Assembly: GCA_016281805.1 (NCBI GenBank)
Contig: JAEEJJ010000075.1
Span: forward strand, 1-46,411
Source: Clostridiales bacterium
GTDB taxonomy: Bacteria; Bacillota; Clostridia; Oscillospirales; UBA644
Direction of reading: 5' to 3'
DNA length: 46,411 bases
Under the pieces are notes generated by a model, which ran no database searches, had not been told where the DNA came from, and saw nothing but the letters and a program-made list of their open reading frames with translations. A program made the translations under genes and the position numbers. Shown here piece after piece: positions 5,411-35,394 of this stretch (positions are counted from its first letter, which is position 1; each line of letters begins with the position of its first letter).

Positions 5411-5790
5411 TTTCGGCACCTCCTTAAACATTATTAAGCAAACAGAAGTTAATATATAACTGTAATAAATCAAAAAAAAAGTCAATCATTATTTTGCGTG
5501 AAACTGCCGCAAGAGGTAAACATTGTGAGGACTGCAAAAAGAAATATTATCGTGATAAATTTTTTCATTCTGTTCAGCTCCTATACCAATAAACTTAAGG
5601 CCCGTTTTTATCTCTCATTTGATAATAATATACTATAATTTTTTAATTTTTGCAAATAATATGTAACAGCAATATGAACTATTGTTTTGTATCCTCTATA
5701 GTATAACGCTGCAGGCACTCTTGACGAAGAAGCCGTCAAAAACACGTTGAAAAATACCGTTAACTTGCTTCGAAAAGAATAATAATAATC

Positions 5791-32149: not shown

Positions 32150-33583
32150 TCATTGGACAACTTCATTGATATTCCAGCCCGAAGACATGAAATCTCCCTT
32201 TGTGTCATAAAGATTTCTCAGTATAGCGGCATTTTCAGTTACGGCATAGTAAGGTCCTTCTTCGCCTTCCTGCCATGCGCACGATGCGGCGTATGTTGCT
32301 TTGCTCAACCATGACGGCAGATCCTGCCATGTTGTCTGTAAAATGCCGTATGCCTTAAGTTCTTTTGCGTCTGCATCAAGCGAACGGACGTTTTCATTTT
32401 CAAGCCACGGACACACTACGGTGTCAAAACCTTTGTCTATAAAATATTTCGTTGTTACGTTAAATCTTTTCGTGTTCCAATATTCCCAGTCTGCAATGAT
32501 AATGTCTTTATCTATAAGATCGATAGCTGCCGCGGTATTTTTATTTTCTCCGCTTGCTACAACAGGTCCTTCGCCGAAATCCGAACGTCTTATAAACTGA
32601 TCATGCCATACTATAGACCGTCTTCCCTTTTTTCGCAGATCGTCCGCCGTTTCGTTCAGAAATTCCGCAAGAAGCTCATGCGGCACATGTTTTCTGCATC
32701 TGTCGCAGCTCGCAAATGAATAGGATTCGTCAAATCCCAGATGAAAATACCTGCCGTCCCCGAAAAAATCGATCAGCTCATTGCGTATTTCAGCAAGCAG
32801 TTTCTTCGTATCGGGATTCGTTATGCACCATGTCCATCCGTCGGGTTCAAAAAGCCTTGCAAGACGAGGGTTTGTATTCAAAACAACATGCCGCCCATAC
32901 ATCGCCCGCGACTGTGTTGCATGCCCGAGCTGATTTGACATAGGTATCGGTTCCATTCCGTAACTGCGGATAAGACTGACAAGTTTTTTATAATCCTCTT
33001 TTGAGTGCGATCTGTCGCTCCATGAAAGTTCAGGTAAGCAATCATATCGGAAGGTGCCCCAGAATTCCAGTATAACATGCGTCATTTTTAAAAAACCGGC
33101 AAGATGGATCGCTTTTTCTATGTTGTAAAGCTCCGTGTCAGGAAAAATGCAGAAATGTATCGCTCTGAACAAAACAGCAGGGGAGTCGTGGATCTCAACA
33201 GCAGAAATATACAATGATTCTTCGCCGATTTTGAGATTGTCGGGACATATAAGCTGAACGAGAGTTTTTATCCCATCTATAAGTCCTTTTCCATCGTGCC
33301 CCGATACGGAAAAACCTTCGGGCGTTGCAATTATCGAATAAGTGTCATCGTCTTTCAGGCAGCTTTTTGCTTTGCCTGCTGTAAAAGTATAATTCTCTTC
33401 ACCTTCTTCGAGCAATAACTCACACGCTCCGAAACTGAATCTTTTCCATAAGTATTTTGTCCTCTCCGCCATATCCGCCGATAGTCCGTTGACTTTTACA
33501 GTCAGTTTTGAACTGAAAACAAAACGATTCTCTTCATCTTCTTTAATATATTTCGGTTTCGGGTACAGATGACTCAGATACAT
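32150..33583 (-). CDS. GH20-family beta-N-acetylhexosaminidase-like protein
   Basis: Probable ATG 33583 (AGGAG RBS); IHDSP..FRAIH, LGH, FHLGFDES (catalytic DE), WHD, DWEY. Confidence 0.82.
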   Translation of the reverse strand: MYLSHLYPKPKYIKEDEENRFVFSSKLTVKVNGLSADMAERTKYLWKRFSFGACELLLEEGEENYTFTAGKAKSCLKDDDTYSIIATPEGFSVSGHDGKGLIDGIKTLVQLICPDNLKIGEESLYISAVEIHDSPAVLFRAIHFCIFPDTELYNIEKAIHLAGFLKMTHVILEFWGTFRYDCLPELSWSDRSHSKEDYKKLVSLIRSYGMEPIPMSNQLGHATQSRAMYGRHVVLNTNPRLARLFEPDGWTWCITNPDTKKLLAEIRNELIDFFGDGRYFHLGFDESYSFASCDRCRKHVPHELLAEFLNETADDLRKKGRRSIVWHDQFIRRSDFGEGPVVASGENKNTAAAIDLIDKDIIIADWEYWNTKRFNVTTKYFIDKGFDTVVCPWLENENVRSLDADAKELKAYGILQTTWQDLPSWLSKATYAASCAWQEGEEGPYYAVTENAAILRNLYDTKGDFMSSGWNINEVVQ

Positions 33584-33671
33584 AAACTCAGGCTCCTGTT
33601 TCATATATTGTTTTTTCGATCGCCATTTTAAAGCTTTTTTTCAAAAATATCAAATCAGGCTTTATATCGTT

Positions 33672-33699
33672 ATTATACCATAAATCATCCCGTTGTCAA
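33672..33699 (-). promoter_or_regulatory. Sigma-A promoter of GH20 gene
   Basis: Minus strand TTGACA-16-TATAAT with extended TG. Confidence 0.7.
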
Positions 33700-33744
33700 G
33701 ATTGAAATAACTGTTTATATCATTTTATCTTTCTCGGGCTAATG

Positions 33745-33842
33745 AAAAAAAGCTCCGATACGCTCGGAGCTTTTCAGCAATTGTTGAAAGGAGTTGAAAA
33801 ACATGAAAAAAATATATTGGAAATGAAATAATCTTAATTTGT
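33745..33842 (-). ncRNA. Candidate ~98-nt small RNA with anti-SD/anti-AUG sequence
   Basis: Own promoter (33849-33877) and terminator (GCTCCGA-GCGTA-TCGGAGC-U7, 33745-33774); no RBS-led ORF on this strand; contains UUUUUUUCAUGUUUUUCAACUCCUUUC. Confidence 0.65.
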
Positions 33843-33848
33843 AACTGA

Positions 33849-33919
33849 ATTATACATCAAAAAAAACTGTTCGTCAACCCCGTTTTGCGCAAGTTGCATT
33901 TTTTACGGTGTAAGTTGCA
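33849..33919 (-). promoter_or_regulatory. sRNA promoter with upstream direct repeat
   Basis: TTGACG-17-TATAAT (33877-33849); AAGTTGCA at 33891 and 33912 (21-bp period). Confidence 0.65.
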
Positions 33920-33940
33920 AAAACAGCGTGTAAAATACAA

Positions 33941-33974
33941 AAAAAAGTCTGTCCTGTATTAACGGACAGACTTT
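33941..33974 (-). terminator. Terminator of SBP paralogue 3
   Basis: AAAGTCTGTCC...GGACAGACTTT with long U tract on minus strand. Confidence 0.8.
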
Positions 33975-34011
33975 ATTTAGTGTATTTTTATTATGATAAA
34001 AAAACGTTTTA

Positions 34012-35394
34012 TTAGTCTGATTTTTCTTCTTCGATCAGTTCCATGATCGTTTCAGCGTTCGGAATAACATACTGTCTTACCTTCTCGTTTGCAGAGCCGG
34101 ATGTCCGTTCAACTATTTCCGCGCCTGTCTTTCCGGTTTTAGCTGCGCTCGTGGCATTCTGAAAATAATCCCATATTCCGAGCGTATAATAATTCCATCG
34201 TGAATACTTCATAAACGTAGTAAACAGTTCAACATCACGCTTGTCGTAAAAAATAGTCGATGCATACGCCTTAAGTTCGTCAAGCGTTTCATACCCTTCA
34301 AACGGCTCAAATATTCTGTCGATAACCATCGCTGCAGCCTCCGGCTCATGGGCATTTACCCAAATTGCCATGCTGTCCGCGCCCGAGTATGCATTTACCC
34401 ATTCGCCGTAAGTTCCGTTCGGACCGCACGGGAACGGAACAACTCCGTAGTTATCAACATCGTATATCATTTCGTTTATCATATGCGAAAAAGATGTTTG
34501 CGCAAGTGTGATATTGCCGTTTATAAATGCCGCAACCATATCGTAGTGACCGAGATAGGTAATTATGTCCGCATGATTTCTCAGCAGGTTTGAACACCAG
34601 TCAAATGCATCTATAACGTTTTGCGAATCAAGCGCCGGAACCATTTTCCCGTCATTCTGAACAGCATAAAACTGCACTCCGTTCATCATTGTAAAATCAA
34701 GGATCGACCATGTGAGATTCATGGCCGTTGATGTGTATTCGCCGTCAACAACATGATAATCCGGCAGAACCTTTTCAAAAGTATCCCATGTCCACTCGCC
34801 GTTTTCAACATATTCGCGAGGGTCGGTAAGGTTGTATTTTGATACTGTATCCTCGTTTACGGCAAATATATTGTATGCGTAGAGCTTTTGCTTTCCTGGC
34901 CACGAAACGGGTGACACCGTGTATGGAATACCGTTGAACATACCCTGTTCAAGTATTCCCGGACTTCCGAATTTTTCTGCATTCGTGTAGTCGATATAAT
35001 CTCTCAGCGCGTCGAGAGGATAATATAATCCGTCTTTTGCGGGATTGTGCGGAGAATGTGAGCAGGCAATTTCTCCAACATATAAATTTGACGCTATCCT
35101 CGCAGTTTCATTGCCGAGAATCGTCTGTATGGAAATCTTGCAGTTATATTCGTCAGATATATCTTTGAGCCTTTTCAGATACAGATCACCCATCAGCGTT
35201 CCGACAGGATACTGAAACGGATGGTCAAGATCATAATCCTGAACGATCGTGCAGTCATATCCGCCGAGATCTACGGTATCTGTATTTGATTCACTGTCAA
35301 AATCAAGAAGAAACTCTTCTTTTTCTCTTTGCGTGCAGGAGCATATCGCAAAAAGGAACAGCAGAACAATTATAATCGAAACGCTTTTTTTCAT
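34012..35394 (-). CDS. Extracellular solute-binding lipoprotein (paralogue 3)
   Basis: ATG 35394 (AAGGGAG); lipobox ICSC; DPREYVENGEWTW, VVPFPCGP. Confidence 0.75.
   Translation of the reverse strand: MKKSVSIIIVLLFLFAICSCTQREKEEFLLDFDSESNTDTVDLGGYDCTIVQDYDLDHPFQYPVGTLMGDLYLKRLKDISDEYNCKISIQTILGNETARIASNLYVGEIACSHSPHNPAKDGLYYPLDALRDYIDYTNAEKFGSPGILEQGMFNGIPYTVSPVSWPGKQKLYAYNIFAVNEDTVSKYNLTDPREYVENGEWTWDTFEKVLPDYHVVDGEYTSTAMNLTWSILDFTMMNGVQFYAVQNDGKMVPALDSQNVIDAFDWCSNLLRNHADIITYLGHYDMVAAFINGNITLAQTSFSHMINEMIYDVDNYGVVPFPCGPNGTYGEWVNAYSGADSMAIWVNAHEPEAAAMVIDRIFEPFEGYETLDELKAYASTIFYDKRDVELFTTFMKYSRWNYYTLGIWDYFQNATSAAKTGKTGAEIVERTSGSANEKVRQYVIPNAETIMELIEEEKSD

Follow-up and report, generated by a model that had tools for sequence, protein, structure and literature searches.

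The DNA analysed here (the window) comprises 46,411 nucleotides, positions 1 to 46,411 of contig JAEEJJ010000075.1 of a Clostridiales bacterium (assembly GCA_016281805.1; Oscillospirales, UBA644). Between the terminator of one gene and the promoter of the next, which carries GH20 Pfam matches, lies a short minus-strand unit that is predicted to encode a small RNA and that forms the subject of this study. A preliminary description of the window had read a complete stand-alone transcription unit at this place, and its promoter, ~98-nt body, hairpin and U7 tract are all present where that description had put them (Table 1). The U-rich body of the RNA is the exact reverse complement of the string given there, a Shine-Dalgarno (SD) sequence followed by an AUG-Lys-Lys start. 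Our analysis added LytTR-type direct repeats upstream of the promoter, paralogues of the unit, and an identical element in the 3' untranslated region (3'UTR) of a regulator operon. Taken together, these connect the RNA with a LytTR Regulatory System (LRS), and we regard it as very likely that the unit is a genuine small-RNA gene, conserved and linked to the LRS; the RNA is probably the translational arm of that sensory system.

Table 1. Coordinates of the minus-strand unit, its flanking signals and the double-box sites of the same genome (positions of the window unless a contig is named).
Feature	Position	Strand or place	Details	Basis
Distal 9-bp direct repeat	33910..33918	(-)	GCAACTTAC; putative LytTR regulator site	sequence reading
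Proximal 9-bp direct repeat	33889..33897	(-)	GCAACTTGC; 12 bp past distal repeat, 11 bp ahead of -35	
-35 hexamer	33872..33877	(-)	TTGACG	promoter scan
-10 hexamer	33849..33854	(-)	TATAAT; 17-bp spacer to -35	promoter scan and sequence reading
Predicted small RNA	33745..33842	(-)	~98 nt, putative start A33842 to end of U-tract	
Second anti-start module	33823..33828	(-)	upstream UUUCAU	sequence reading
U7-CAU	33803..33812	(-)	complement of AUG AAA AAA A (Met-Lys-Lys start)	sequence reading
Spacer	33794..33802	(-)	9 nt between CAU and anti-SD	sequence reading
Anti-SD	33786..33793	(-)	CUCCUUUC; 9 nt past CAU	sequence reading
Intrinsic terminator	33745..33774	(-)	A4, stem GCUCCGA, loop GCGUA, stem UCGGAGC, U7	reading and folding
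Terminator hairpin	33752..33770	(-)	GCUCCGA/UCGGAGC	sequence reading
U7 tract	33745..33751	(-)		sequence reading
Terminator of upstream neighbour	33945..33975	flank of unit		scan and reading
Promoter of downstream neighbour	33672..33699	GH20-domain gene	TTGACA-16-TGnTATAAT; extended -10, 12/12 match	scan and reading
Double-box site 1	window unit	own genome		pattern scan
Double-box site 2	C80:3180-3280	own genome	paralogous small-RNA-like unit	pattern scan
Double-box site 3	C128	own genome	promoter of R-M operon (148-aa R first)	pattern scan
Double-box site 4	C131	own genome	promoter of 555-aa sortase-domain protein	pattern scan and profile search

The minus-strand promoter matches the consensus at 11 of 12 positions and ranks second among the 8 promoter-like sites of 33000-34600, a region whose shuffles hold 4.3±2.2 such sites. 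Transcription is predicted to begin at A33842 because of the position of the -10 hexamer and because yACAAA is conserved at +1 in the paralogues. When the RNA is folded, the terminator alone pairs (-18.1 kcal/mol, z -3.5; 1 of 200 shuffles is equally stable) and the 5' 68 nt, including CUCCUUUC and the CAU, are predicted to be unpaired. A simple terminator scan reported no site at the unit, probably because it prolongs the stem into the A4/U4 flanks and thereby absorbs the U-tract. Over the whole window Rfam gave no match at the gathering threshold; at 33650-33950 it gave 16 sub-threshold matches, all far under the cut-off, and GcvB, to which the preliminary description had likened the RNA, reached 19.8 bits against a gathering threshold of 42.

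To place the unit among its relatives, we searched 41 related genomes with positions 33500-34100. Conservation peaks in 54 nt on the upstream side of the -35 hexamer; these recur several times per genome and contain the repeat pair GCAACTTAC/GCAACTTGC. A scan that tolerated one mismatch per box found exactly four such double-box sites in the own genome (G000; 2.2 Mb, 43% G+C, 83% complete), one of them at the promoter of a two-gene operon (Table 1). Its first product, R (148 aa), matches the Pfam LytTR domain at residues 49-143 (E 7.9e-27) and has no other domain, a receiver domain included; against NCBIfam, the match is confined to the C-terminal DNA-binding part of BtsR/LytR and lies far under the cut-off. 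The second, M (145 aa), starts 4 nt past the R stop codon in G000, shows four hydrophobic segments by eye, and has no match to a Pfam or NCBIfam family. An open reading frame (ORF) follows R in 12/12 operons extracted from genomes of the genus, with a length of 142-146 aa, or 155-158 aa in G013 and G003, where an upstream GTG start was picked. The motif GCAACTTAN-12 bp-GCAACTTRC stands 10-11 bp ahead of TTGAC in all 12 operons and in the window unit.

This layout of R, M and double repeats is that of an LRS, which the sections of PMC6193735 devoted to it define as a LytTR regulator with a membrane inhibitor, positively autoregulated and silent in the basal state. The LRS repeats described there are 9-bp, mostly 12 bp apart and ~10 bp ahead of the -35, within a rule of ~9-bp direct repeats 11-13 bp apart and 4-11 bp upstream of the -35; the S. 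mutans SMU_1070c/1069c system uses GCAACTTAG-11 bp-GCAACTTGA (PMC6193735). The repeat spacing at the window unit fits this rule.

Several details of the regulator locus and its promoters deserve mention in their own right. At the R-M locus of the own genome (G000:C128:9349-10326; L032/L058), R has a TTG start and is followed by M; the 3'UTR there carries two U-run-CAU modules and CUCCUUUC, then a terminator shared with a convergent HD-domain-like gene, and this synteny is seen in most genomes of the genus. The sortase-class promoters (G000:C131:17571-19370; L037, L041, L051, L054, L056, L057, L059, L062) have a conserved inverted repeat, ACCGCC...GGCGGT followed by T5, which brackets the proximal box and the -35 (hexamer TTGATT); this could be the terminator of the upstream gene overlapping the promoter or a second layer of control. 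At window positions 33885-33912 and at other R and small-RNA promoters, the flanks of the proximal repeat tend by eye to be complementary (CCGU...ACGG, CCCCU...AGGGG, CCUU...AAGG), which would suit a short inverted repeat placed around the box.

We then scanned 46 genomes of the taxonomic family for the double-box motif and sorted the sites by downstream content. This revealed 33 places. R operons account for 12 of them, sortase-class promoters for 9 and small-RNA units for 8, the other 4 being chance sites within coding DNA; all 29 true sites fall within one genus. A covariance model built from the 8 small-RNA units and run on 16 genomes of the genus regained all 8 at 84-102 bits (window RNA, 91.8 bits) and added a ninth, G013:C15, at 63.6 bits, whose proximal box has one mismatch; in 30 genomes of 9 other genera it found nothing at E<=0.001. 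TTGAC of the -35 is kept in 9/9 small-RNA promoters. The unit therefore recurs beyond chance, with promoter, core and terminator in 9 stand-alone copies in 5 genomes, each of a different species of the genus. R was found in 12 of the 16 genomes, the same 12 that have double boxes; of the four genomes without it, two are 98% complete and two ~60% complete. The stand-alone small RNAs are confined to the five genomes with an R at least 91% identical to that of the own genome. A single degenerate box with a decayed promoter lies at L022 (G013:C73:27542-28765), within a stretch that shares homology with the sequence upstream of the window RNA, and may be the remnant of a lost small-RNA copy.

Genome after genome, the covariance model also matched sequence directly after the M stop codon of the R-M operons. 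The element lies there in 12/12 LRS operons and shares the operon terminator; the search for homologues and paralogues that the preliminary description had proposed yielded 12 operon 3'UTR elements besides the 9 stand-alone copies. In 10/12 of these 3'UTRs, CAU or CAC still follows a U-run and an anti-SD is kept. The small RNAs that we class as types A and C have a AAGAUUAU motif 7-20 nt from their start, and the same motif follows the operon stop codon; AAUUGCUGA and the GCUCCGA stem are common to the window RNA and the G008 operon 3'UTR, and the first nucleotides past the -10 resemble the operon leader in G013. Because the same element stands in the 3'UTR of all 12 LRS operons, the stand-alone genes, which are homologous to the operon ends, look like operon copies without ORFs. 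Judged from this homology, the simplest history would be duplication of the operon and then loss of both ORFs, which would have fused the promoter to the 3'UTR.

Comparison of the copies revealed which parts of the element are kept. All 9 stand-alone copies have a U5-7-CAU-N7-9-(C)CUCCUUU core, a short linker and a terminator. Among 7 non-redundant copies, mean pairwise identity is 0.87 in the core and 0.82 in the terminator, compared with 0.62 in the 5' part and 0.56 in the linker, which identifies the anti-SD/anti-AUG-Lys-Lys core, already central to the preliminary description, as the part under selection. A hairpin and U-tract end 21/21 family elements, and the stems pair in all 21 despite differing sequences (GCUCCGA, GUCCCG/CGGGAC, GCUCCGG, CCCCGA/UCGGGG, CUCCGAAG, GAUCCUCGG and others). 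An automatic alignment of the elements mixed in terminator matches on the reverse strand and did not enter these pair counts. A second CAU comparable to the upstream UUUCAU is not universal, occurring in 5/9 stand-alone copies and several operon 3'UTRs. In type A copies the terminator U-tract runs into a CAU and so forms a third U7-CAU.

On the opposite strand, the mini-ORFs behind the SD-like motif are 3-30 aa long, end at differing stops and have only Met-Lys-Lys in common, with Ile-Tyr in some. The plus-strand peptide MKKIYWK, which the preliminary description had named as the competing reading of the site, is not conserved; 2/12 operon 3'UTR copies have no ATG-started mini-ORF behind the SD-like motif, and G001 has lost the CAU. 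Strong SD-N6-10-ATGAAAAA sites number 51 in the own genome, and 8 of the 51 lack a real ORF; three of those 8 belong to the small-RNA element family and two are cut by contig ends. With the core kept, the opposite-strand ORFs unconserved and ORF-less strong SD sites rare, the comparison indicates that selection acts on an RNA-level mirror of the start region and not on a peptide. Elsewhere in the window, at 5485-5568 (-), an orphan strong ribosome-binding site precedes a 28-aa ORF that ends just after what looks like the signal peptide of a lipoprotein (MKKF...TSC); either a lipoprotein gene that was truncated or a lipoprotein of very small size may lie here.

For target prediction we used the own genome, with 2130 start regions from crude gene calls and a heuristic signal-peptide flag that marks 277 genes, and compared duplex energies of the 42-nt core with those of 32 dinucleotide shuffles. 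The core pairs more strongly with start regions than the shuffles do (mean -12.04 vs -10.18±0.62 kcal/mol; 0/32 reach it), and its top 100 contain 44 signal-peptide genes vs 16.6±4.8 in shuffles (again 0/32). With the full open region, the top 100 hold 37 signal-peptide genes for the window RNA, 31 for the paralogue and 23 for the operon 3'UTR. Genes starting ATGAAAAAA carry the signal-peptide flag in 46 of 74 cases, vs 13% overall. The preliminary description had envisaged a repressor of Met-Lys-Lys signal-peptide messages that might tune the binding-protein repertoire. In keeping with the first half of this idea, predicted binding favours signal-peptide genes beyond composition-matched shuffles; the second half finds no support, as with the window RNA the start regions of SBP3, SBP5 and SBP4 rank 116, 190 and 635 of 2130. 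The binding-protein genes of the window range from 116 to 1492, and specificity for them was rejected. Of the four starts offered as examples, only that of the M16-like lipoprotein reaches a rank as good as 15.

From these observations, a working mechanism can be drawn. The stand-alone LytTR factor R (148 aa) would be restrained by the co-transcribed four-segment membrane protein M (145 aa); once released, it would bind the two 9-bp repeats upstream of the -35 and switch on the ~98-nt RNA, together with its own operon, the sortase-domain gene and the second small-RNA gene on another contig. The unpaired 5' two-thirds of the RNA would display U7-CAU-N9-CUCCUUUC, the mirror of a strong ribosome-binding site and AUG AAA AAA, and by pairing with translation-initiation regions it would block 30S binding. 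Exported proteins are the likely targets, because strong-SD Met-Lys-Lys starts belong mostly to secreted proteins and lipoproteins, and the net effect would be that their synthesis is throttled while the LRS is on. We favour, with some reserve, the reading of the unit as an LRS-dependent translation-initiation blocker acting on strong-SD Met-Lys-Lys messages, in the manner of the csRNAs of Streptococcus.

Two other accounts concern what the locus is. In one, the plus strand is the functional one, as an orphan ribosome-binding site with the mini-ORF MKKIYWK or as a 29-aa ORF (33742-33831) through the hairpin; the product could be, for instance, a micropeptide, or else a type I toxin against which the minus-strand RNA serves as antitoxin. 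A perfect SD at proper spacing does stand ahead of the ATG, MKKIY appears in several copies, one copy encodes a 17-aa hydrophobic peptide, and weak plus-strand promoter-like sites (9/12 matches) exist. The window (33742-33831 (+)) and the type A loci L010, L039 and L060 also have in common a 26-29-aa ORF, MKKSSD..GAFQ.., that runs through the terminator hairpin; however, this ORF is limited to type A, is preceded by no SD and shifts frame once the residues encoded by the hairpin are passed. The mini-ORFs, for their part, keep no residue past Met-Lys-Lys, and a conserved small hydrophobic toxin ORF, as a type I toxin-antitoxin system would have, was not found, only one opposite-strand ORF being hydrophobic. 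In the plus direction, moreover, the site sits behind a bidirectional terminator with no conserved promoter alongside, and we judge a functional plus strand very improbable. The other account sees the stand-alone units as functionless, decaying duplicates of LRS operons, transcribed or not. Their clear homology to operon ends, their confinement to 5 closely related species and the lack of an identified target all speak for it. Yet repeats, -35, -10 and terminator are intact in no fewer than four diverged lineages (types A, B and C, and G013:C15), which also space SD and start more cleanly (7-9 nt) than the 3'UTR versions do although the flanking segments have drifted, and orthologous copies are retained across different species and contexts, so that mere decay appears distinctly unlikely.

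The remaining accounts accept the RNA and dispute its partner. R, M and the sortase gene were considered as targets within the regulon, and their start regions rank unremarkably among the 2130: R at 513, 655 and 295, M at 86, 430 and 160, and the sortase at 181, 907 and 462 with the window RNA, the paralogue and the operon 3'UTR, respectively. Even so, RNA and operon 3'UTR might act mainly on the M start as feedback regulators, lowering the inhibitor once R is active and locking the switch on. M starts AUG AAA AAA or AAG behind GGAGG in 9/12 operons, every operon carries the element in physical linkage with M, and AGUUGA, AUGAAAAA and AAUAUAUU occur both in the complement of the window RNA and in the G010/G001-type M start (-27.7 kcal/mol). 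The rank of 86 with the window RNA counts for this idea, but the paralogue and 3'UTR place M only at 430 and 160, and z-scores for own-genome pairs are modest (-2.0 to +1.2; the M start is mis-set for G013 and G003). Where M starts AUGUUGGAU, as it does in G002, G004 and G005, the 3'UTR nevertheless retains U7-8-CAU; the element thus does not co-vary with M, and feedback on M seems to us unlikely, though worth keeping in mind. Finally, the U/C-rich RNA might work as a decoy, with a protein or ribosomal components as its partner, such as a factor that binds pyrimidine tracts or one with affinity for the anti-SD tail of 16S. We take the core to resemble the 16S 3' tail and initiator anticodon, which would suit a decoy, as would the failure of a specific mRNA target to emerge; the loci show no link to a candidate binding protein, however, and the exact SD-to-start spacing with its Lys-Lys extension is what mRNA pairing predicts. 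A decoy is accordingly the kind of explanation to which we give hardly any credence.

Several results also weigh against translational blocking of exported-protein messages itself. Enrichment for signal peptides is partly circular, because Lys-Lys starts mark signal peptides and some enrichment is thus built into the design, and by area under the curve it is weaker (0.685 vs 0.591±0.037 in shuffles, matched by 1/32). Duplex energies are dominated by U-rich versus purine-rich composition, no single target stands out in the own genome, and the longest perfect complement anywhere in it is 15-16 nt and of low complexity. The CAU has been lost in two operon 3'UTRs (G010, G001), the near-consensus promoter might fire without R, and the stand-alone copies are limited to 5 closely related species, all represented by metagenome-assembled genomes. 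The own genome lacks an assembled 16S 3' end against which the presumed anti-SD mimicry could be set. The run search returned four runs that each hold a small part of the stretch, two of them labelled RNA and the other two guessed to be so, and the only RNA-library signal is one 249-nt contig (run X18) that covers 33741-33944 and so spans promoter and repeats too; it ends ~6 nt past the terminator, but such contigs give neither strand nor ends and DNA carry-over is possible, so we treat it as neutral. Stretches without cover carry no weight either, and since LRS are described as silent in the basal state, a lack of signal in bulk data would not decide the matter.

A unique cognate target was likewise considered and rejected, there being no perfect complement longer than 15-16 nt and no outlier save one ABC-exporter start. 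This is the best duplex of all (-43 kcal/mol), formed by the operon 3'UTR with the start of the second ABC-exporter-like ORF (7161), which is purine-rich; we judged it compositional, and it too speaks against a specific pairing. The locus (G000:C187:3091-9038) consists of 244-aa and 432-aa ORFs followed by two ABC-exporter-like ORFs.

Outside the genus, a metagenome pattern scan covering 80 loci gave 82 matches, of which 3 come from the LRS of the genus (L167, L126, L103), and no new small-RNA copies; the rest are mostly chance matches, with a few similar boxes ahead of secreted-protein genes in other organisms. In metagenome contigs of such organisms (L135, L139, L140, L144, L150, L169, L121, L124), double boxes GCAACTTAC-12 bp-GCAACTTAC followed by TTGAC precede genes for Met-Lys-Lys or Met-Lys secreted proteins, and the repeat type therefore appears to be used more widely for exported-protein genes. 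L071 is a distant LRS relative, with an R 42% identical and an ABC gene in place of the 3'UTR element.

The genus thus has a compact regulon, in which the operon is joined by a sortase-domain protein and by one or two small RNAs, which suggests that LRS output can be post-transcriptional. It also offers a clean, datable case of a stand-alone small-RNA gene arising from an mRNA 3'UTR that captured the promoter of its own operon. LRS are widespread, and according to the parts of PMC6193735 that survey them only S. mutans examples have been characterised. No account of small RNAs in LRS regulons came up among the 12 open-access texts that a full-text search listed, none of which contains LytTR, and the term 'small RNA' is absent from PMC6193735. 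If Met-Lys-Lys starts are indeed damped as a class, the result would be a simple coupling of envelope or secretion state to exported-protein translation in Firmicutes. More speculatively, and with considerable doubt, one may picture an LRS whose output is mainly RNA: release from the inhibitor would swamp the cell with several copies of an RNA that imitates the recognition surface of the ribosome (the anti-SD, the initiator anticodon and two anti-Lys codons) and that would throttle initiation globally on the strong-SD Met-Lys-Lys messages of the secretome, a Gram-positive counterpart of the sigma-E/Cpx small-RNA arms with genes born by ORF deletion.

How does the window RNA compare with known systems? 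GcvB is a multi-target repressor of transporter and binding-protein mRNAs that acts at start regions. The analogy drawn to it in the preliminary description proves poor, since besides its low model score GcvB follows another seed logic, a G/U-rich seed against C/A-rich enhancers and not an anti-SD/anti-AUG mirror, and the window RNA shows no preference for binding proteins. RNAIII, under AgrA, is a regulatory RNA driven by a LytTR-domain regulator on paired repeats. The same arrangement links the present unit to VR-RNA, which is driven by VirR (as far as described in PMC4877802 and PMC4963840). In both of these cases, unlike here, the regulators are phosphorylated two-component response regulators, and the RNAs are long and structured and work through C-rich loops or specific sites, not through a linear SD-to-start mirror. 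A closer parallel for the operon element is CpxQ, a regulatory RNA in the 3'UTR of the cpxP mRNA that PMC4817254, in the portion bearing on it, presents as the post-transcriptional arm of the Cpx envelope stress response. CpxQ is, however, Gram-negative, dependent on Hfq and RNase E and equipped with specific seeds, whereas the present family has extra stand-alone copies with their own promoter.

For the promoter, the likeness lies with the LRS HdrRM and BrsRM: R and a membrane protein form an operon, 9-bp repeats 12 bp apart stand 10-11 bp ahead of the -35 at operon and regulon promoters, and the repeat here nearly equals that of S. mutans SMU_1070c/1069c (PMC6193735). The regulons described in the relevant sections of that article consist of bacteriocin and competence genes (PMC6193735), whereas the regulon of the genus consists mainly of RNA. 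The operon here also differs in carrying an anti-ribosome-site 3'UTR.

The csRNAs of Streptococcus come nearest in design. As documented in PMC3091779, to the extent that it covers these points, they hold anti-SD and anti-start sequences in an unpaired region (CAU in 53/61), measure ~90-150 nt with their own terminator, and occur as several sibling small RNAs per genome under one regulator, CiaRH, through promoter direct repeats. The window family is alike in these respects, with the anti-SD CUCCUUUC and the CAU predicted unpaired here and found in 9/9 copies. It is unlike them in its regulator, a stand-alone LytTR protein with a membrane inhibitor where the csRNAs answer to a phosphorylated OmpR-type response regulator. 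The CiaR-type repeat is TTTAAG-N5-TTTAAG; the promoters here have no such repeat and carry 9-bp repeats of the GCAACTTAC type. A single hairpin, the terminator, replaces the two stem-loops that flank the unpaired region of csRNAs, and an extra U7 extends the potential pairing into two Lys codons. The lineage, uncultured gut Clostridia, differs as well, and no similarity in sequence or model (no Rfam match) connects the two. By promoter repeat, two-hairpin fold and model match the window RNA falls outside the csRNAs, but in design, an unpaired mirror of the ribosome-binding site and start codon placed under a presumed shared regulator, it is csRNA-like.

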